Below the pieces are notes generated by a model, which had not been told where the DNA came from, ran no database searches, and saw nothing but the letters and a program-made list of their open reading frames with translations. A DNA stretch of 64,000 nucleotides from Oscillospiraceae bacterium (GTDB lineage Bacteria > Bacillota > Clostridia > Oscillospirales > WRJC01). Location of the stretch: the NCBI GenBank assembly GCA_009783265.1, contig WRHM01000009.1:29339-93338 (forward strand), written 5' to 3'. The position numbers and the translations under genes were made by a program. The first letter of the stretch is position 1, and the number at the start of each line of letters is the position of its first letter. Positions 622 to 26,786 of this stretch are shown piece after piece.

Positions 622-1881
622 ATGCAGAACGACTATATAAAACCGTCGCTTGATTATATTGAGCAAAACTTAAAAACTGATATAAAAACAGCAGAACTCG
701 CGAATATGACGGGTTATTCCGTCACGCATTATTATCGTTTATTTAATAAAGCGACAGGGTTGTCGGTTGCCAACTACATTTCTAAAAAACGTATAAATCA
801 TGCGCTGTTTGAAATATTAGCCGGACGAAAAGCGATTGATGCGGTTTTGGAATACGGTTTTGATACTTACGCGGGATTTTATAAAGCGTTCGTAAAAATG
901 CATGGCTGTTCTCCGATGAAATATTTAACTATATACAAAAATTTAACGCCAAAAGAGTTGGAGGATATACTCATGGAATATAATTTAACAGAAACACAAA
1001 AAAATGCAATAATAGAGAGCAAGGGAGACGGTTTTTATTTAAAAGTCTTACAGGATTATGAATTATACTCAGAAAAATGGAAATTGATCGATTTTGAGTT
1101 TGACGAAAATTATCATTGGTTCGTTACGTTTTACTGCAAGTCCGAACTGTACGGGGACTGCGTTTTAAAAATATACGACGACGATGAAATCGTGCGCGAA
1201 TATAACGCCCTGCTTGAATATGAAAATAACGGCGGGTACTGTGTTAAGGCTTTAGGGTATGAACCAAACGACCATACAAACGGAGCCATGCTTACCGAGC
1301 GTATTTTTCCGGGGGAAAAATTGGGAGAAGACCCGTCGCTTGAAAAAAAACTGGCGGTATATTCGGAAATTTTTAATAAATTGCATATTGAGCCAAAAAA
1401 TCCTGAAATATACGGTTCTTACGCAGACGGGATTATTGATAGTTTAGATTACACGATAGACAGACGAGAAGATAACAAAGAATTGTATTTTCACGCATTG
1501 AAAGCAAAAGAGATATGTTTAGAAATAGCGTCCGTTTATAATAAAAAGCTGTTGCTTCACGGAGGTTTGCATTTCGGAAATATCTTATCGTGCGAAAACG
1601 GAAACTATAAAATAGTAAACCCTGCCGGAATTATCGGCGACCCTGTATTTGAAACGGGCGCGCTTATGTATCATGAATGTTTGTGGCATGGCAGAGACCC
1701 CGAAAAAACAGAAACAGTCATAAATTATTTAGAAAAAAGTTTGAATATCCCGAATAAAATCATAAGGCAATGCGCTTATATCACCGTCGTCTCAGATCAA
1801 TGCTCCTGGGTCAGATGGCATTCGGGTTATGACGTTGAAAAATCAAAATTTGCGGAAAGTATTATGAATAAAGCGAAATAA
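622..1881 (+). CDS. AraC-type HTH (N-terminal) fused to aminoglycoside/streptomycin-6-kinase-like (APH) domain with degenerate catalytic motifs
   Basis: N-terminus matches the AraC double HTH (TAELANMTGYSVTHYYRLF...AVLEYGFDTYAGFYKAFVKMHGCSP). C-terminus has APH(6)-type landmarks (VLKIY, LLLHGGLHFGNIL, IVNPAGIIGDP). RBS ggaagGAGaaac lies upstream. Confidence 0.7.
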   Translation: MQNDYIKPSLDYIEQNLKTDIKTAELANMTGYSVTHYYRLFNKATGLSVANYISKKRINHALFEILAGRKAIDAVLEYGFDTYAGFYKAFVKMHGCSPMKYLTIYKNLTPKELEDILMEYNLTETQKNAIIESKGDGFYLKVLQDYELYSEKWKLIDFEFDENYHWFVTFYCKSELYGDCVLKIYDDDEIVREYNALLEYENNGGYCVKALGYEPNDHTNGAMLTERIFPGEKLGEDPSLEKKLAVYSEIFNKLHIEPKNPEIYGSYADGIIDSLDYTIDRREDNKELYFHALKAKEICLEIASVYNKKLLLHGGLHFGNILSCENGNYKIVNPAGIIGDPVFETGALMYHECLWHGRDPEKTETVINYLEKSLNIPNKIIRQCAYITVVSDQCSWVRWHSGYDVEKSKFAESIMNKAK

Positions 1882-1936: not shown

Positions 1937-3316
1937 TTATTTTACCGGCGTTTGCCCGGCTTTGACAAGAGAGTTAGTATAATCCGGATACAGCCATTCT
2001 AAATTATTTCTGTCAAGCAATTTAAAGCTGCCGCCGTCGTCCCATATAATAGACGGTATTCCCAGTTCTTTTAATTTGACTATATAATAATCCGCCCATT
2101 TTATTATTTCGGCTTCGTTTGAATTACCGTCGGGCATAGTCCTGAATATCGCTCCTGTTTCACCCATAATAGTTGGAATATTATTTGATACAAAATATTT
2201 ATCTAAAATTTTCAGGACATTATTGAGATTAGAAGAAACGCTCCCGACTTTTAAATCAAAATACCAACTGAACCATTCGGAATCGTCGGGCGCGGTCACA
2301 AATCCCCACGGCTCGTAATAATGCACAGATGCGATTAATCTGTCTCTCGGGTCGTTGATTTTTAATTTTCCCGTTTCTTTATCTACAAACAATCCTATCC
2401 TGCCCTCTCCGTCGTTTGTATCCATTCCAACGCTCGCAAAATACGGCGTTACCATTAAGTGCCTGTCGGGATTTTTGCCTCTGCCCGCCCTTATTGTATC
2501 AACAAATGTCTGCTGTATAGCATTTAAAAAATTGCACTGTTCAGCCCAGATTTCTTTGGTTATATTATTTAGTCCCTCTGTTCTCGGTTCGTTTAGAGCC
2601 TCAAAAATCAAATGCTCGTCATAATCTTCAAACCGTTTGGCGATCTGCTCCCAGAGCTTTCCCATACGGTTTTTGAATTCCTGCTTTTCAGAATCCGTAA
2701 ACGGCCTGCTGCCGCCATCTTCTTCTATATGATAAAGCGTGAGCCAGCCACATTCCCAATTATCGCCGCTTTTGTAATCGTCATGATGAATATTTAAAAT
2801 ACAGAACATGCCGTTTTGTATCACATAATCCACAACTTCCTGCACTCTATCAAGCAATTCACCGCCGATTTTATAATCCGGTCCGGGCCCTGTGAATATA
2901 TACCATGTGACGGGGATTCTTACTGTATTGAATCCCGATTCTTTTATCTTGTCAATCATTTCTTTGGTCGTAACGGGATTACCCCACATTGTTTCCTGCT
3001 CCTGAGGGGAATTTATTGTTCCCCACGGGCGGCCGTTCCAGTGCGCGTCAAAAGTATTGCCGAGATTCCAGCCGGCAGATATTTTATGAACAAGTTCAAG
3101 CGAAGTGAGACTTCCGACATCTTCTCCGCCGGCTTTTTCAATTTCAGCTTCAATTATATTCCCGGTTTCTTTTGGTTTTTCTTTTTCCATATTATCAGTT
3201 TCCTCCGTTTCAGATTTTTCAATTTCGCCGTTAATATCGCATTTAGCCGCCGCCGTTACTGTGATTACGGCTAAAAGTATCAGTGACATAATAAATTTGA
3301 TTTTTTTGATTTTCAT
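1937..3316 (-). CDS. Glycoside hydrolase family 5 (cellulase/endoglucanase-like), secreted
   Basis: N-terminal signal/anchor. Motifs GWNLGNTFDA, VRIPVTW, FEALNEP (acid/base Glu) and GETG (nucleophile Glu). Confidence 0.85.
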   Translation of the reverse strand: MKIKKIKFIMSLILLAVITVTAAAKCDINGEIEKSETEETDNMEKEKPKETGNIIEAEIEKAGGEDVGSLTSLELVHKISAGWNLGNTFDAHWNGRPWGTINSPQEQETMWGNPVTTKEMIDKIKESGFNTVRIPVTWYIFTGPGPDYKIGGELLDRVQEVVDYVIQNGMFCILNIHHDDYKSGDNWECGWLTLYHIEEDGGSRPFTDSEKQEFKNRMGKLWEQIAKRFEDYDEHLIFEALNEPRTEGLNNITKEIWAEQCNFLNAIQQTFVDTIRAGRGKNPDRHLMVTPYFASVGMDTNDGEGRIGLFVDKETGKLKINDPRDRLIASVHYYEPWGFVTAPDDSEWFSWYFDLKVGSVSSNLNNVLKILDKYFVSNNIPTIMGETGAIFRTMPDGNSNEAEIIKWADYYIVKLKELGIPSIIWDDGGSFKLLDRNNLEWLYPDYTNSLVKAGQTPVK

Positions 3317-3711: not shown

Positions 3712-4269
3712 ATGACAGAGCAATTATCAGAAATCGGCGGCAGGCTTGCGGCTCTCAGGGATATTATGGATATTCCGGCTGAAAAGATGGCGGCGGATAT
3801 GAAAACTGACGTCGGGGAATATATTGCGTACGAACGCGGCGAACGTGATTTTTCGTTTAGTTTTTTGCAGAACGCGGCGAATATCCTCGGCGTGGATATT
3901 GTGGATATTATCAGCGGCGAATCGCCGAAACTGACAAAATGCACGCTTGTGAGAAAAGGCAAAGGCTATGATATAATGCGCCGCGAAGCGTATGATTATA
4001 AACATCTGGCTTTTACGTTCAGGGATAAAAAATCCGAGCCGTTTATGGTGACGGTGGAACCGAAAGAAGAAGAGCTTAAACCTACGCTCCATTCGCATGA
4101 GGGGCAGGAGTTTAACTATATGGTATCAGGCAAAATGGAATTTTATCTTGACAATAATATTTACGAACTCGATGCAGGCGACAGCGTATATTTTGATTCG
4201 GGTATTCCCCACGCAATGAAAGCTGTCGGGGGACAGCCGGCAAAATTTATCGCCGTTGTGATAAAATAA
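3712..4269 (+). CDS. XRE-family HTH + cupin domain transcriptional regulator
   Basis: N-terminal HTH_3-like segment (IGGRLAALRDIMDIPAEKMAADMKTDVGEYIAYERGE). C-terminal cupin (HSHEGQEFNYMVSGKMEF...GDSVYFDSGIPH). AGGAGG RBS. Confidence 0.85.
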   Translation: MTEQLSEIGGRLAALRDIMDIPAEKMAADMKTDVGEYIAYERGERDFSFSFLQNAANILGVDIVDIISGESPKLTKCTLVRKGKGYDIMRREAYDYKHLAFTFRDKKSEPFMVTVEPKEEELKPTLHSHEGQEFNYMVSGKMEFYLDNNIYELDAGDSVYFDSGIPHAMKAVGGQPAKFIAVVIK

Positions 4270-4411: not shown

Positions 4412-6103
4412 ATGCTTATGTATGAAAAATATATAGGGAAAAACAGGGATGATTTCACGTCATACGACGATGTTATGCAAAACTTTAAAATCAAATATAA
4501 CGACGATTTTAATTTCGCGTATGACGTACTTGACGAACTGGCGCGAACACAACCGGATAATTTATGCATGATGTGGATCTCAAACGAGGGCGAAGAAAAA
4601 GCTATATCGTTTGCCGAAATGGCGAAATATTCAGATAAAGCCGCGAATTATTTTAAGTCTCTCGGGATTCGCAAAGGCGATTTTGTAATGCTCGTACTAA
4701 AAAGAAGCTATCTTTTCTGGTACTGCATGATGGGTCTGCATAAAATCGGAGCGGTCGCGGTTCAGGCGGCGCACTTGCTGACAAAAGACGATTATATATA
4801 CAGGTGCAACGCGGGCAATATAAAAATGGCGGTGATTACCGGAGATAATAACTGCACAGAGGCTTTCGACGGAGGAGAATCAGAATATGAAACAGTCGAA
4901 ATAAAAGCCGTGACAAAACATAAAAAAGCCGGAAGCGGCTGGCTGGATTTTGAAGCGGGGCTTGAAGCCGCGTCAGAAATATGGAAACGTCCGGCGGGAG
5001 AAAATAACACCAAAGCGACGGATATGATGATTATGTCGTTTTCGTCCGGCACGACGGGTTATCCCAAAATGGTAGCGCATGATTATACTTATCCGTTAGG
5101 ACATATAGGAACGGGAATATTCTGGCACAGAGTTATAAAAGGCGGCCTGCATTTCACTATTTCAGATACAGGCTGGCTTAAATCGCTCTGGGGCAAGATG
5201 TACGGCCAGTGGCTCGGCGAGTCCGCTGTCCTGACTTATGATTTTGAAAAGTTTAACGCAAAAGATATACTTGGCGTTATGGAAAAATATAAAGTCACTA
5301 CTTTTTGCGCGCCGCCAACTATGTACAGGCTTATATTAAACGAAGACGTGGCTTATTATGATTTATCAGGGCTTAAACACTGCTGCGCGGCTGGGGAGGC
5401 GTTGAGCCATGATCTGTTCAGCAAATGGCAGGCGCTTACAGGGCTTAATATATACGAGGGGTTCGGGCAGACCGAAACGACTTTGTGCTGCGCGACTTTA
5501 TACCCGTTCACCGAGCCTCGCCCAAGCGCGATGGGCATGACTGTTCCGGGATATGACATGATAATAGCAGATGCCGAAGGCAACAGCGTCGCCGCAGGCG
5601 TAACGGGAGAAATCTGTATCAGGGCTGAGTCGCACGAAAACCGTCCGGTCGGGTTATATATGGGCTATCACAAAAACGAAGAAGCCACGCAAAATTCATG
5701 GCACGACGGACTGTTTCATACCGGAGACACGGCATATCGCGACGAGCAGGGATATCTATGGTATGTCGGGCGCAACGACGATATTATAAAATCCTCAGGT
5801 TATCGTATAGGGCCTTTTGAAGTCGAGAGCGTATTATTAAAACATCCGGCGGTCGCCGAAGTCGCTGTAACAGGTGTGCCCGACGAGATACGCGGATTCA
5901 GCGTAAAAGCTACGATAGTTCTTGCGAAAAATTACACGCCGTCGAAAGAACTAATAAAAGAATTGCAAGATTTTGTGAAAAAGACCACCGCGCCTTATAA
6001 ATATCCGCGGGTTATCGATTTTATCGACGAATTGCCCAAGACTATAAATGGCAAAATCCGCAGGGTTGAGATACGCAATAAAGATATGAGTAGCGTGAAA
6101 TAA
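4412..6103 (+). CDS. AMP-forming acyl-CoA synthetase (medium-chain/ACSM-like, AMP-binding family)
   Basis: AMP-binding signature MSFSSGTTGYPKMV, plus YGQTE-like EGFGQTET, GDTAYRDEQGYLWYVGRNDDIIKSSGYRIGPFEVE and the C-terminal PKTINGKIRR. Confidence 0.9.
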   Translation: MLMYEKYIGKNRDDFTSYDDVMQNFKIKYNDDFNFAYDVLDELARTQPDNLCMMWISNEGEEKAISFAEMAKYSDKAANYFKSLGIRKGDFVMLVLKRSYLFWYCMMGLHKIGAVAVQAAHLLTKDDYIYRCNAGNIKMAVITGDNNCTEAFDGGESEYETVEIKAVTKHKKAGSGWLDFEAGLEAASEIWKRPAGENNTKATDMMIMSFSSGTTGYPKMVAHDYTYPLGHIGTGIFWHRVIKGGLHFTISDTGWLKSLWGKMYGQWLGESAVLTYDFEKFNAKDILGVMEKYKVTTFCAPPTMYRLILNEDVAYYDLSGLKHCCAAGEALSHDLFSKWQALTGLNIYEGFGQTETTLCCATLYPFTEPRPSAMGMTVPGYDMIIADAEGNSVAAGVTGEICIRAESHENRPVGLYMGYHKNEEATQNSWHDGLFHTGDTAYRDEQGYLWYVGRNDDIIKSSGYRIGPFEVESVLLKHPAVAEVAVTGVPDEIRGFSVKATIVLAKNYTPSKELIKELQDFVKKTTAPYKYPRVIDFIDELPKTINGKIRRVEIRNKDMSSVK

Positions 6104-8464: not shown

Positions 8465-9607
8465 CTACGGCAGCATATTTATCATTTCCAGACATAAGCG
8501 GCCGTTATGATACGGGCATTTCCACGCGCCGCATAAACCGCCTGAATTTTTAACTGCCTCGCCGTTTTCGTTTACGTAAACATACCATTCGCCGTAAGGC
8601 GAGATAAAATAATTTTTGACGTAATTCCATAGATTTTCAGCGAGAATCATAGATTTATTATTGCCGTATAAATTATACTGATGAACGAGAGCGACTATCG
8701 CTTCAGCCATTACCCACCACGAACGCGCTTTATTTTCGATGCCGTCTGTGCAGTCATAATAAACGCCGTTTCTGCCCTCGTCCACAAATCCTTTTGATAT
8801 TACGTTTTGCGCGACTTTTTCAAGTTTCGGCGATAAATTATTTGTTATATAAGCATTGCCCAAAACTTCGCAGGCCCTGTAAATCAGCCATGATATTTCT
8901 ATGTCATGCCCATAAGAGAGCATATCCCCAACCGGGTTCATAAATTTGTCAAAATAGCATTCAAGACGGCATAATTTATCGTTATACGCTTTATCTATAA
9001 CAAGATTAATCGAATATTCCAGCGCGTTTCGCGCTTCTTCTGATTTTACAGCCTGATAATATTCCGTATATGCCTCGATTATGTGCAATAAAGTATTCAT
9101 CGTTCGGGTGTATTTAAAATCGCGCCTGTCGAAGTTATATAATTCAAGATAACCGTATTCGTCTCTGAATTTATTTTCGATTAAATCAAATATTTTATTG
9201 GCGGCATTCAAAGCCGGTTCGTGTTTGCTTATTGAATAATACGCGCTGATCGAATATAACGCAAACGCCAAAGCATAAGTGTGTTTTTGATTATCGTCGA
9301 TTTTGCCGTCGTATTCGACCGACCAGTAGATCCCGCCGTCGGCTGGATCGAGCATATATTTTTTTATAAATTCAAATTGCAGTCTGGCAAAATCAAATAA
9401 TTTTTCATCTTTTAAAATTTTATAGCATGAACTGTAATACCATAGTATTCTTGTCTGTAAAACTGCCGCCTTCGGAGCTTTTTTGCTGATTTTATTATCG
9501 CTGTCAACGCTGCCGTAAAACCCGCCGTATTGAGTATCGTATAAATTATTCCAGAACGGCAGCAAATCATTTGTCAGATGATTTTGAAATTCTGATTTGT
9601 TGAGCAT
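8465..9607 (-). CDS. N-acylglucosamine 2-epimerase (AGE) superfamily protein (cellobiose 2-epimerase / mannose isomerase-like)
   Basis: N-terminal LTNDLLPFWNN...GGFYGS. Alpha/alpha-toroid-like repeat pattern. C-terminal KCPYHNGR motif. Confidence 0.8.
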   Translation of the reverse strand: MLNKSEFQNHLTNDLLPFWNNLYDTQYGGFYGSVDSDNKISKKAPKAAVLQTRILWYYSSCYKILKDEKLFDFARLQFEFIKKYMLDPADGGIYWSVEYDGKIDDNQKHTYALAFALYSISAYYSISKHEPALNAANKIFDLIENKFRDEYGYLELYNFDRRDFKYTRTMNTLLHIIEAYTEYYQAVKSEEARNALEYSINLVIDKAYNDKLCRLECYFDKFMNPVGDMLSYGHDIEISWLIYRACEVLGNAYITNNLSPKLEKVAQNVISKGFVDEGRNGVYYDCTDGIENKARSWWVMAEAIVALVHQYNLYGNNKSMILAENLWNYVKNYFISPYGEWYVYVNENGEAVKNSGGLCGAWKCPYHNGRLCLEMINMLP

Positions 9608-9771
9608 ATTATTATTCTCCTTTTGAATTTTAATTGTTCAGATATATGCAAAAAATATCGCACTCTTATGCAAGACCCTCTTTAAAAAAGAGGGCTTTGG
9701 CAAAAATTTTTAAGTTGCAATTATTATATCATAAATTTTTAGATTAAAACACAAGAAAGGAAAAAATATTT

Positions 9772-11136
9772 ATGTCAAATATAGAAATACCGTCCTCGGT
9801 CAATACTAACTCAAAACCGTCGCAGCTCAAAATCACCGATGTAAGATTCACGGATATTGTCGGCGCGCCTATGCCATGCACATTGATGAAAATTTATACA
9901 AATCAGGGGCTTGTTGGTTTAGGCGAAGTTCGCGACGGAGCTTCGAGAACTTATGCCGAAATTCTCAAAAGCCGCATACTCGGCGAAAATCCGTGCGAGA
10001 TAGATAAAATTTTCAGGAGGATAAAACAATTCGGCGGGCAGGCGCGTCAAGCCGGAGGCGTCTGCGGCGTTGAAATCGCCCTGTGGGATTTAGCGGGCAA
10101 AGCCTACGGAGTGCCTGTATATCAGATGCTCGGCGGTAAATTCAGGGATAAAATCAGGATATACTGCGATACTGACGTTTCGGGTAAACATACCGGAAAA
10201 GACATGGGCGAAGCTCTTAAAAAACGCATGAATATGGGATTTACGTTTTTAAAAATGGACTTGGGAATCGGGATTTTATATCACGAAAAAGGAGCGTTGA
10301 ATGCGCCTCTGGGATTTTTGCAGGAACCGCAGGAAAACTGGGAAAAAAACAAAGGCGACGATCCGTCAATTAAAAGATACGCCCGCAACAGAAATTATGA
10401 TTATTATAATATAGCGCACCCATTCACGGGAATACATATAACAGAACACGGATTTGATATTCTTGAACAGTATGTCTCGGACGTAAGGTCAATTATCGGC
10501 TATGAAATTCCGCTGGCGATAGACCATTTCGGGCATATCTGCGTTGAAGACTGTATAAAACTCTGCCGCCGCATAGAAAAATATAATATAGCGTGGGCTG
10601 AGGATTTGATACCGTGGCAATATACGGACCAGTATGTCCGCCTGAGGAATTCTACGACTGTGCCGATTTGCACGGGGGAAGATATATATTTAAAAGAAAA
10701 TTTCAAGCCGTTGTTTGAAAAAGGCGGCGTTGCTGTGATTCACCCGGATTTGCTGTCAAGCGGCGGGATATTCGAAAACAAAAAAATCGGCGATATGGCG
10801 CAGGATTACGGCGTTGCGATGGCTGTGCACATGGCTGAGTCCCCTGTGACATGTATGGCGGCGGTTCACTCAGTCGCGGCTACCGAAAACTTTTTAGTCC
10901 TCGAAAATCACTCTGTCGACGTTGACTGGTGGGACGATATTGTGATAAAAAGCGAGAATAATAATCAAAAACTCGTGCAAAACGGATATATCGAAGTACC
11001 GGATAAGCCGGGTCTCGGAATCGATGATTATAACGATGAAATTATAAAAGAACATCTGCACCCGAGATTTCCCGAATTATGGGCTTCGACTGATATTTGG
11101 AACGACGAGTGGAGCCATGACAGGCTCTGGAGCTAA
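9772..11136 (+). CDS. Enolase-superfamily (mandelate racemase/muconate lactonizing family) sugar-acid dehydratase-like protein
   Basis: KITDVRF...YTNQGLVGLGE N-terminal capping domain. Barrel motifs AIDHFGH, WAEDLIP, GEDIY. Confidence 0.8.
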   Translation: MSNIEIPSSVNTNSKPSQLKITDVRFTDIVGAPMPCTLMKIYTNQGLVGLGEVRDGASRTYAEILKSRILGENPCEIDKIFRRIKQFGGQARQAGGVCGVEIALWDLAGKAYGVPVYQMLGGKFRDKIRIYCDTDVSGKHTGKDMGEALKKRMNMGFTFLKMDLGIGILYHEKGALNAPLGFLQEPQENWEKNKGDDPSIKRYARNRNYDYYNIAHPFTGIHITEHGFDILEQYVSDVRSIIGYEIPLAIDHFGHICVEDCIKLCRRIEKYNIAWAEDLIPWQYTDQYVRLRNSTTVPICTGEDIYLKENFKPLFEKGGVAVIHPDLLSSGGIFENKKIGDMAQDYGVAMAVHMAESPVTCMAAVHSVAATENFLVLENHSVDVDWWDDIVIKSENNNQKLVQNGYIEVPDKPGLGIDDYNDEIIKEHLHPRFPELWASTDIWNDEWSHDRLWS

Positions 11137-25063: not shown

Positions 25064-26581
25064 TTAATTATATAAATTTTTTTTGAACGCCGGTTTTTCT
25101 TTAGGGGGGATCTGCCCGTTGCACTCTTTGAATTTTTTTGGCGTGACTCCGGTTATTTTTTTGAAAACTTTATTAAAATAACTCTGGTCGTAAAATCCCA
25201 CGTTTGCCGCTATATCGACAAGGCTTATCCGTTCTGTCAGTAATAAAACCTTGCTTTTTTCTACCCTGACAAAATTCAAATAATCGTTAAAATAATAATT
25301 CATTTCTTCTTTGAAGATTTTTGAAAAATACGACGGGGACAAAAACACATATTCAGCGACTTCGTTTAAAGTCAGTTTGCGCATATAATTTGTTTTAACG
25401 TAAGAGACTGCCTTTGAGATCAAATCCACATGTTTTACGTGTGAAAACTCAAAAGTCTCTTTTGTGAATTTTCTTAATATATCAGTCAAAGCCCAGCAGA
25501 CTTCCTCGATTGTTTTATAATTAAAAAATTCGCTTAAAAATTTTATGTTTATATCAAAAATCTTTGACTGGTCAGCTCCTCCGTCGAGCGCGGCCCTTGA
25601 AATCATCACCGAAAGTTCCATTGCCCTGACTTTTATAACATCGGGATTATTCGCCGACGAGAAAAATATATGCCCCAGTATCTCGTTAAGATATTTTCTC
25701 GTGTTTGCCAAATCGTTGCTTATTATAGCGTAAGCAAGCTGTTTTTCTTTATCATACGGATATGATATATAACTCTGGCTTTCTTTAATAAGCGCGGCTT
25801 TGACGTTTTGAATATACTCGCCGATTTGCTTCTGCTGCTCGTATATCTCATTGTTTTTTATAAATCTCGGCATATCGGCTTCTTCAGATAATTGCCTTGA
25901 GCAGACATATAATAAATTCGCGATATGCGTTATCAAGTCAGACGCGATAACCGGGACTTCTTTTACGGTTTCCAGAGTTTGGCTAAAATTTATATTAAGA
26001 TTTAACGCGCCGATCAATTCGTCAACGTCGAAATCTTCGGCATAAACCGGGGAAATCGGGCCCGCCGCAAGATACCGAACGTCTTCGCCTCCGTTAAGAG
26101 TGACGGGGCATACTATAAAAACAAATCCGGCAGGACAGAAATAAATATATTTTCCCCCGAAGCGTTCGCTCTGTTCACCCGCGTATACGTGAACACCGAA
26201 GCAATAATTATCTTCGATTGTTTTAGTTTTAATTGATTCGATTTTATCAGACAAACCGGATAAATCAGGGTTATTAGCCGTCATAAATTTAGAATTTTTT
26301 ATTATTTTACAGGCGCATCCGCATGAATTTACGTCGCATATCGCAGAGTTTTTCTTATCGATACACATAACCCCGCATTTTATGCTCTTTGAAAAAGACT
26401 CCATGAGTTTTTTTTCGCTCATATCGTCTATATCCGTTATATTTATATCATCGTTTTTATTATCTGCATCTGTCTTGGTGGTTTCAATATGCATCTGTTC
26501 GACGATTTTGACATCGGCATTTTTAGAATCCTGTAATTTATCCAATTTATCGCTTTTACCGCTCACAGTTTTCTTACGCAT
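25064..26581 (-). CDS. AraC-family transcriptional regulator with Cys-rich PocR-like sensory region
   Basis: C-terminal AraC HTH (LTLNEVAEYVFLSPSYFSKIFKEE...GFYDQSYFNKVFKKITGVTPKKF). N-terminal half carries CGVMCID...CGCAC. The true start may be internal. Confidence 0.75.
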   Translation of the reverse strand: MRKKTVSGKSDKLDKLQDSKNADVKIVEQMHIETTKTDADNKNDDINITDIDDMSEKKLMESFSKSIKCGVMCIDKKNSAICDVNSCGCACKIIKNSKFMTANNPDLSGLSDKIESIKTKTIEDNYCFGVHVYAGEQSERFGGKYIYFCPAGFVFIVCPVTLNGGEDVRYLAAGPISPVYAEDFDVDELIGALNLNINFSQTLETVKEVPVIASDLITHIANLLYVCSRQLSEEADMPRFIKNNEIYEQQKQIGEYIQNVKAALIKESQSYISYPYDKEKQLAYAIISNDLANTRKYLNEILGHIFFSSANNPDVIKVRAMELSVMISRAALDGGADQSKIFDINIKFLSEFFNYKTIEEVCWALTDILRKFTKETFEFSHVKHVDLISKAVSYVKTNYMRKLTLNEVAEYVFLSPSYFSKIFKEEMNYYFNDYLNFVRVEKSKVLLLTERISLVDIAANVGFYDQSYFNKVFKKITGVTPKKFKECNGQIPPKEKPAFKKNLYN

Positions 26582-26786
26582 TTTTTTTACCCTATCAAAA
26601 AATTATCCGAATAACAAAATTATAACAAAAAAAACGCGCATTTAATTGTAAAAAAACGCTTTTTTTTGTATTATTGCGAAATTATTAGATAAAATTTATT
26701 ATATCATATTTATAATATTAAATCCACAGTTAAATTTTTTATGTAAAATAAACGCAAAAAAATTAAAAAATTTTAAAAACAAACGC

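Follow-up and report, generated by a model that had tools for sequence, protein, structure and literature searches.

The stretch of DNA analysed here, referred to as the window, comprises 64 kb of contig WRHM01000009.1 from an Oscillospiraceae bacterium. Near its start, positions 622-1881 hold an open reading frame with an ATG start codon, and its 419-residue product joins an AraC-type helix-turn-helix (HTH) DNA-binding domain to a kinase-fold domain, as indicated by the list of open reading frames, by Pfam and by a homologue search. Features lie on the forward strand unless stated otherwise. The fusion gene follows a truncated URO-D family gene (17-460) and is itself followed by a convergent gene for a GH5 cellulase (1937-3316, reverse strand). 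The window protein is identical to one from a metagenome-assembled genome at NCBI (Oscillospiraceae bacterium, annotated 'helix-turn-helix domain-containing protein') and is also found on independent JGI and ENA assemblies, which excludes an assembly artefact.

The N-terminal part of the protein is an AraC/MarA-type double HTH (residues 6-105; 637-936). Matches to Pfam HTH_18 (residues 26-102; 58.7 bits, cutoff 33.6) and HTH_AraC (residues 13-53; 28.1 bits, cutoff 26.6) both lie above the gathering scores, and a search of PDB sequences aligns residues 6-102 with MarA (1bl0), Rob (1d5y), RamA (7bef) and SoxS. Seven helices are predicted across residues 7-105. The protein therefore has the unit of about 100 residues with two HTH motifs that defines the AraC/XylS family, and it has it in the order found in Rob, with the HTH (6-105) preceding a second domain (118-419). 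An initial annotation made from the sequence alone had described an AraC double HTH in a Rob-like order, and the Pfam and PDB alignments bear this out. The match to the RobA equivalog is confined to the HTH and reaches 45.6 bits against a cutoff of 380 bits, so that the protein is not assigned to RobA. The linker between the domains (residues 106-117; 937-972) is the least confident part of the predicted model.

The second domain (residues 118-419; 973-1878) has an APH(6)/choline-kinase-like, that is eukaryotic-like kinase, fold and is catalytically degenerate. Pfam assigns residues 195-389 to the family APH_6_hur (PF04655; 37.2 bits, cutoff 27). The AlphaFold2 model, for which 56 sequences were aligned, has a mean predicted local distance difference test score (pLDDT) of 87.3 and a predicted template modelling score (pTM) of 0.71, with most of the kinase-like part above 90. 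When this model was compared with the PDB using Foldseek, it matched the aminoglycoside phosphotransferase (APH) APH(4)-Ia, the choline kinase LicA, the fructosamine-3-kinase FN3K, YtaA/CotI (2q83, among the best matches), the amicoumacin kinase AmiN, macrolide phosphotransferases (MPH) and CcrZ, with a probability of 1.00, target-normalised TM scores of about 0.55-0.68 and sequence identities of 11-17%. The initial annotation had proposed an aminoglycoside-phosphotransferase-type fold and had named an unrelated fold as the outcome that would overturn it; Pfam, the model and the Foldseek probability agree on the former, and the predicted kinase fold can be regarded as certain.

The family profile was used to map the catalytic residues. 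Its segment 'LlHgDlhxxN...kiiDp' aligned with 'HGDLSQYN...IIDFP' of Rio2 and with 'HGDLHTGS...VIDPE' of methylthioribose kinase (MtnK), and its segment 'CvLKi' aligned with the strand of Rio2 that carries the ATP-binding lysine (CVVKF). These alignments place residue 315 at the position of the catalytic-loop Asp and residue 333 at that of the metal-binding Asp. The catalytic loop of the window protein reads HGGLHFGN (residues 313-320; 1558-1581), with Gly315 (1564-1566) in place of the catalytic Asp, and the metal-binding motif reads VNPAG (residues 332-336; 1615-1629), with Asn333 (1618-1620) in place of the Asp equivalent to that of the DFG motif. The loss of both residues, which had been read from the same two motifs in the initial annotation, thus holds under profile mapping. 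Other canonical residues are kept, namely the ATP-binding Lys183 of strand beta3 (CVLKI; 1168-1170), Glu199 of helix alpha-C (1216-1218), His313 and Asn320. Measured against a competent kinase, the protein has the beta3 Lys, the alpha-C Glu and the catalytic-loop Asn and lacks the catalytic-loop and metal-binding Asp residues. Gly339-Asp340-Pro341 (1636-1644) is invariant; Asp340 is the structural Asp equivalent to D220 of PKA and is equally invariant in active-looking and inactive members. The equivalog APH(6)-I (NCBIfam NF012171) matches with 26.6 bits against a cutoff of 325, which leaves the protein outside that group.

Relatives of the protein fall into three groups: about 26 AraC-fused proteins that are 58-81% identical to the query, standalone kinases of about 300 residues that are 42-62% identical to its C-terminal part, and a larger set of fusions of AraC with PF01636 (APH) that have the HTH alone in common with it. 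The two Asp residues divide the first two groups almost completely. Both are kept in 61 of the 61 full-length proteins without an HTH, and both are kept in one of 25 full-length AraC-fused proteins, 19 of which have lost the pair; among proteins that have no HTH, exceptions are confined to fragments of 173-245 residues and uncertain architecture. Conservation of the two substitutions among homologues had been suggested as a check on the initial annotation, and the outcome, Asp loss in 24 of 25 fused proteins and in 0 of 61 standalone ones, agrees with its claim. An exhaustive profile search for the wider family in 1.84 billion representatives returned 178 relatives at E <= 1e-30, of which 133 cover both motif columns. 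Both Asp residues are kept in 131 of these, other types of fusion included, and the two exceptions are the standalone protein P0248 and a 155-residue fragment that resembles the fused clade. The other fusions with both residues intact combine the kinase with a GNAT acetyltransferase (in both orders), a ToxN toxin, a DinB_2, a PNPOx-like domain, an ArAE/FUSC exporter or a second kinase in tandem (P0129, P0214, P0131, P0174, P0250, P0291, P0178 and P0286). Decay therefore tracks fusion to a DNA-binding HTH and not fusion in general. Among the standalone representatives of the wider family, P0248 (310 residues) alone has degraded motifs (HGN...K...INP) and is by these motifs a free-standing pseudokinase.

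An unbiased scan of entropy over about 300 alignment columns gave a consistent picture. The largest gains of variability in the fused proteins are at positions 315 (Asp), 169 (Ile), 333 (Asp) and 165 (Ser), in that rank, and the overall mean entropy is lower in the fused set (0.98 vs 1.44 bits). Residues 165-169 (1114-1128) form the beta1-beta2 nucleotide-positioning loop of the N-lobe, which adjoins the P-loop by the strand alignment with Rio2; the Ser165 and Ile169 of active relatives are His and Thr in the window protein, and position 165 is mostly Trp, Phe or Tyr in the other fusions. The Asp residues are replaced by G, N, R, A, Q, H or E at 315 and by N, E, K, H or A at 333, and so many replacements indicate relaxed constraint rather than a switch to a new catalytic residue. 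The initial annotation had allowed that a different Asp might supply catalysis. No conserved acidic residue specific to the fusions was found across the fused clade, and Asp340 is structural, which argues against this. D186 and D217 were considered as compensating residues and ruled out because both are shared with the nearest intact standalone proteins (P0030-32).

In a tree of the kinase domain the fusions form two clades. The first contains 21 sequences, including the window protein (bootstrap 94), and lacks Asp333 in every member; within it, the subclade of P0010, P0012, P0016 and P0019 (bootstrap 97) has D, G, D and N, respectively, at position 315. The second contains four sequences (bootstrap 100), all of which keep Asp333 and three of which have lost Asp315 and His313. 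Each fused clade is sister to different intact standalone kinases (bootstrap 89 and 92), and monophyly of all fusions was recovered in 0 of 100 bootstrap replicates. Two histories would fit, one in which the same HTH fused on two occasions with related kinases and one in which fissions followed a single fusion; under either, the distribution of the residues indicates that inactivation occurred several times. When the window gene was compared pairwise with five homologues, the ratio of nonsynonymous to synonymous substitution (dN/dS) was 0.06-0.17 in the HTH and 0.19-0.42 in the kinase-like part, pointing to purifying selection on the kinase-like domain. The protein thus presents what defines a pseudokinase, a fold under selection that is missing essential catalytic residues, and its assignment as a predicted pseudokinase is strongly supported.

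The third group of relatives, the fusions of AraC with PF01636, occurs in Clostridia (P0065-P0120; loci L012-L031), and its hosts include the cultured Herbinix hemicellulosilytica and Thermoclostridium caenicola as well as Proteiniborus sp. DW1. These proteins are uncharacterised and are annotated as 'helix-turn-helix domain-containing protein' or 'phosphotransferase'. The majority have an intact HRD...N...DFD, and a large sub-family has HRDPNPSN...IDFD. Other lineages have decayed to HRNPHGGN...IGFE, HGNLCGDC...KSFE, HDGFIWFN and further variants, so that by motif inspection catalytic decay recurs in several sublineages beside intact ones. When a recurrent neighbour was sought for these fusions, the best shared family was present in only 4 of 20 loci.

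Further searches covered the window and three collections. No paralogue of the kinase domain was found in the 64-kb window. A second AraC-type HTH is encoded there at 25067-26602 (reverse strand); it matches the HTH profile of the family weakly (E = 4.5e-7) and is not accompanied by a kinase-like domain. In species-representative genomes a first scan was empty and a second gave only HTH-level relatives of the AraC-PF01636 type; a plasmid database contained one standalone relative, from Paenibacillus, with intact motifs. The PADLOC library of defence systems gave a match at chance level (E = 0.005, 14 bits), and the protein is not counted as a defence component.

The sequence upstream of the gene is far more strongly conserved than the synonymous sites of the coding region. 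A block of some 60-80 nt that precedes the ATG (543-621) is nearly invariant in the alignments, with 84-100% identity in eight independent contexts, and synonymous sites of the reading frame differ by 38-55%. This block contains a TG element with TATAAT (585-592) and a Shine-Dalgarno sequence AAGGAG (608-613), and is marked out as a promoter and 5'-untranslated region. The block is probably a conserved promoter plus an autoregulatory operator, for which positions 543-584 are the candidate segment. In a search of the window for a regulon, a conserved operator-like 20-mer from the block was found only once, even when up to three mismatches were allowed. A structured RNA or riboswitch was considered for the block and rejected because it has no match to an Rfam family and its consensus fold is weak and without covariation. 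A 25-nt part of the block also lies 5' of an AraC-PF01636 gene (L012).

Just upstream, an A/T-flanked hairpin at 515-544, AAAAAAAGAGAAC-ATAGC-GTTCTCTTTTTT, resembles a terminator or an insulator. It accompanies the gene in five of the eight contexts, and lies 5' of the homologues in L001, L006, L007 and L032 despite different upstream genes. Homology between loci stops at the stop codon; the gene's terminator, a GC-rich hairpin with a T-run after it (1908-1928), is not part of the conserved cassette. A sub-threshold match to the Rfam family MicX (28 bits; gathering score 75) at 1842-1943 on the reverse strand overlaps this hairpin and is most likely due to chance. Within the gene, a GGAGGA (960-965) is followed after 7 nt by the ATG of Met118 (973-975), a residue that lines up with the initiator Met of the standalone kinases. 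Members of the main fused clade share the motif, even where it encodes other residues (L033), and clade 2 lacks it. It may be a relic of the ribosome-binding site that preceded the fusion, or possibly a second start site.

The genes around the homologues differ from place to place. The combinations met in the eight contexts include an ABC-2 transporter with PAP2, carbamoyl-phosphate synthase with a methyltransferase and a URO-D paralogue other than that of the window, a tRNA methyltransferase with GH42, and a methyltransferase with a beta-lactamase-family gene. In the window, the GH5 cellulase is predicted to be secreted, and beyond it lie genes for a small XRE-HTH/cupin regulator (3712-4269) and an AMP-binding, acyl-CoA-synthetase-like enzyme (4412-6103); none of these three downstream genes is conserved beside the homologues. 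A URO-D gene adjoins the fusion gene in two arrangements (17-460, forward, in the window; 9288-10337, reverse, in L002; 7246-8295, reverse, in L004; 4725-5807, forward, in L006). This linkage was not counted because the URO-D proteins of the two arrangements share only about 20% identity and are thus different paralogues, and the adjacency may be due to chance or reflect an association at the level of the family. The fusion gene itself is, from these comparisons, a self-contained cassette that travels with its own promoter block. One copy (gene 4878-6101 of L032, the contig of P0023) is located on a plasmid-like contig of 14.9 kb with two Rep_3 genes, a relaxase with a NikA-like gene, and MNT/HepT and Gp49/HTH_3 toxin-antitoxin pairs, which suggests that the cassette is horizontally mobile. 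The standalone intact kinases (L036, 5001-5918; L037, 5001-5888; L008, 5262-6131) lie in stable housekeeping neighbourhoods and not in resistance islands. In two cases the gene is transcribed divergently from hrcA-grpE-dnaK, close to genes for sigma-70 and UDG, and in the remaining case tyrS and dnaE flank it. These positions hint at a core metabolic rather than a resistance role. As for the hosts, the isolate labels Emb289, Nt197, Th196 and Lab288 and the shared sample identifier Ga0123355 point to termite guts, which we take to be their source, partly on the basis of a published series of termite-gut metagenome-assembled genomes.

Taken together, these observations provide the basis for a model in which the window protein is a one-component regulator whose dead kinase-fold domain serves as an effector sensor, a reading that we consider fairly probable. 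In this model the MarA/Rob-type double HTH would bind DNA, and the C-terminal domain would have descended from an active small-molecule kinase of the APH(6) family. Phosphotransfer would have been lost through Gly315, Asn333 and the remodelled nucleotide-positioning loop, and the domain would have kept its fold along with some of the pocket (Lys183, Glu199, His313 and Asn320). The dead domain might then bind the substrate of the ancestral kinase, a nucleotide, or both, and binding would alter how the HTH engages DNA or RNA polymerase, much as the C-terminal domain of Rob does. The conserved promoter block would be the probable autoregulatory site, and other targets would be dispersed. We infer in this way that the protein lacks kinase activity, binds a ligand and controls its own gene, acting as an activator or a repressor.

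The initial annotation had proposed that the kinase fold was recruited to sense a ligand, possibly an aminoglycoside, rather than to act as a resistance enzyme. A non-catalytic regulatory domain is indeed the best reading of the Asp loss in AraC-fused relatives combined with purifying selection, and that part of the proposal stands; an aminoglycoside ligand is unsupported. Similarity to APH(6)-I is very low (the bit score given above, and 11-17% identity to solved APHs) and the closest active relatives have housekeeping contexts, both of which disfavour aminoglycoside sensing. Strict anaerobes, which the hosts are, do not take up aminoglycosides and are intrinsically insensitive to them, and this too counts against such a ligand. 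Membership of PF04655, together with the fusion of distant active members to GNAT, DinB, PNPOx-like and exporter domains, favours a xenobiotic or antibiotic-like ligand. An extension of the model would make these proteins mobile MarA/Rob-like regulators of gut Clostridia, derived at least twice from an active kinase that modified xenobiotics or antibiotics, in which the inactive enzyme would continue to bind its old substrate and the regulator would use this recognition to switch on a dispersed protective regulon. We hold this extension to be rather unlikely as it stands. If it were true, a resistance-type enzyme would have been turned into the drug sensor of a transcription factor, and the AraC-kinase fusions with intact motifs in other Clostridia would be 'trigger-enzyme' intermediates on that path.

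Several observations weigh against the sensor model. A shared neighbour gene or operon partner that might point to a regulon was sought in the eight independent contexts and none was found. The fused protein P0014 retains all catalytic residues, and P0010 and P0016 retain Asp315 with a Glu at 333, so that catalysis may persist in part of the family. Lys183, Glu199 and Asn320 may have been retained for structural reasons and not for binding. Finally, the AlphaFold2 model has low confidence where the two domains are joined (pLDDT 58-64 across residues 101-120).

The alternative that survives best would make the dead domain either a sensor of nucleotide (ATP/ADP, and hence energy state) or purely a scaffold for protein-protein contacts or oligomerisation, as in many eukaryotic pseudokinases and in the spore-coat BSK pseudokinases. 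The presence of Lys183, Glu199 and Asn320 in all 27 fusions fits residual nucleotide binding, non-catalytic roles have been proposed for the BSK proteins of the same superfamily (PMC2860764), and the gene context offers no clue to a ligand. The nucleotide-positioning loop, relaxed at Ser165 and Ile169 and often carrying a bulky aromatic residue, argues in contrast against canonical binding of ATP phosphates. An oligomerisation domain is not obviously needed either, since DNA-binding domains of the MarA/Rob type act as monomers. We give this alternative a modest chance of being correct.

A second alternative, which is compatible with the sensor model, is that the gene yields two products, the full-length regulator and a free pseudokinase of about 302 residues that starts at Met118 and modulates either the regulator or the active paralogue of the cell. 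The GGAGGA is placed 7 nt before an ATG that stands exactly at the start codon of the standalone kinases, and its conservation in the main fused clade extends to members with different amino acids at this point. However, the motif is absent from the second fused clade and can be accounted for both by conservation of the peptide ELE(D/E)IL and by inheritance from a ribosome-binding site older than the fusion, and we think a second product improbable.

It could also be supposed that the window protein is still an active kinase with a non-canonical mechanism, and so a bifunctional 'trigger enzyme' like BirA, NadR or PutA. The full motif set of P0014 and the catalytic Asp of P0010 and P0016 speak for this, and the many AraC-PF01636 fusions with an intact HRD...N...DFD make active kinase-regulator fusions plausible. 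In the window protein, however, both Asp residues are gone, positions 315 and 333 are hypervariable across its relatives with no single alternative residue, and the only acidic candidates, D186 and D217, are not specific to fusions; an active enzyme is accordingly very unlikely here. The weakest alternative is that the fusion is decaying or without function, or that it arose through an error in assembly or gene calling. An enzyme gene in decay would be expected to lose its catalytic residues, but independent assemblies contain about 26 homologues (58-81% identity) with an intact open frame, dN/dS well below 1 in both domains excludes decay, the promoter block is conserved and the fold is confidently predicted, which leaves this explanation with a negligible chance.

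Under the sensor model, the family would offer an exceptionally clear natural experiment, with standalone kinases that are active, a single fusion whose motifs are intact and two fused clades that have lost different catalytic residues, a series that would display the stepwise conversion of an enzyme into a regulatory domain. Should the standalone kinases act on the same compound that the regulator binds, identification of either would reveal the other, and the pair could be converted into a biosensor. The hosts of the window-type proteins are uncultured; the cultured Herbinix and Thermoclostridium, with their AraC-PF01636 fusions, would be the tractable organisms.

The full-text literature searched contained no description of an AraC-APH fusion; an apparent match to 'AraC' in a review of pseudokinases proved to be the word Arachis in its reference list. 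To our knowledge, no AraC regulator with an APH or eukaryotic-like-kinase-fold sensor has been characterised, and among bacterial pseudokinases, which have been little studied, we know of none that is the sensor module of a transcription factor. The closest systems each share one part of the architecture. Rob, MarA, RamA and SoxS have the same N-terminal AraC double HTH of about 100 residues, and Rob has a C-terminal effector-binding domain as well; in Rob, however, this domain is GyrI-like and not a kinase fold, and MarA and SoxS are without a sensor domain. The streptomycin 6-kinases APH(6)-Ia/Id and hydroxyurea kinase (PF04655) have the same fold and the same layout of motifs (beta3 Lys, alpha-C Glu, HxDxxxxN, IDPxG and GDP). 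In contrast to the window protein, which falls far below the APH(6)-I cutoff, APH(6)-Ia/Id have both Asp residues intact and are not fused to a DNA-binding domain. The BSK pseudokinases of Firmicutes (CotS/YtaA/YutH) belong, like the window family, to the choline/aminoglycoside-kinase superfamily, and have undergone repeated independent catalytic loss with the structural His and Asp kept, the latter at the position of PKA D220 (PMC2860764). Unlike the window protein, they are spore-coat proteins without a DNA-binding domain, and the role proposed for them is structural or in pseudosubstrate binding rather than in the control of transcription (PMC2860764). The AraC-PF01636 fusions have the same architecture as the window protein, an HTH that is 55-78% identical and, in L012, part of the promoter block, whereas their kinase domain comes from another branch of the superfamily, is not detected by the family profile and has mostly intact motifs. 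Sensors derived from enzymes are found among the ROK repressors NagC and Mlc (sugar-kinase fold), MocR/GabR (aminotransferase fold), BlaR1 (class D beta-lactamase fold) and the AraC regulators of the FtrA/GbdR/CdhR type, which have a DJ-1/PfpI (GATase-1-like) domain. In all of these an enzyme fold with lost or reduced catalysis serves as the ligand module, as proposed here, and the fold differs from that of the window protein. Proteins that join an AraC/MarA-type domain to an APH-fold pseudokinase are present in databases without a name of their own, and the principle they appear to follow, the use of an enzyme fold as a sensor, is well known.

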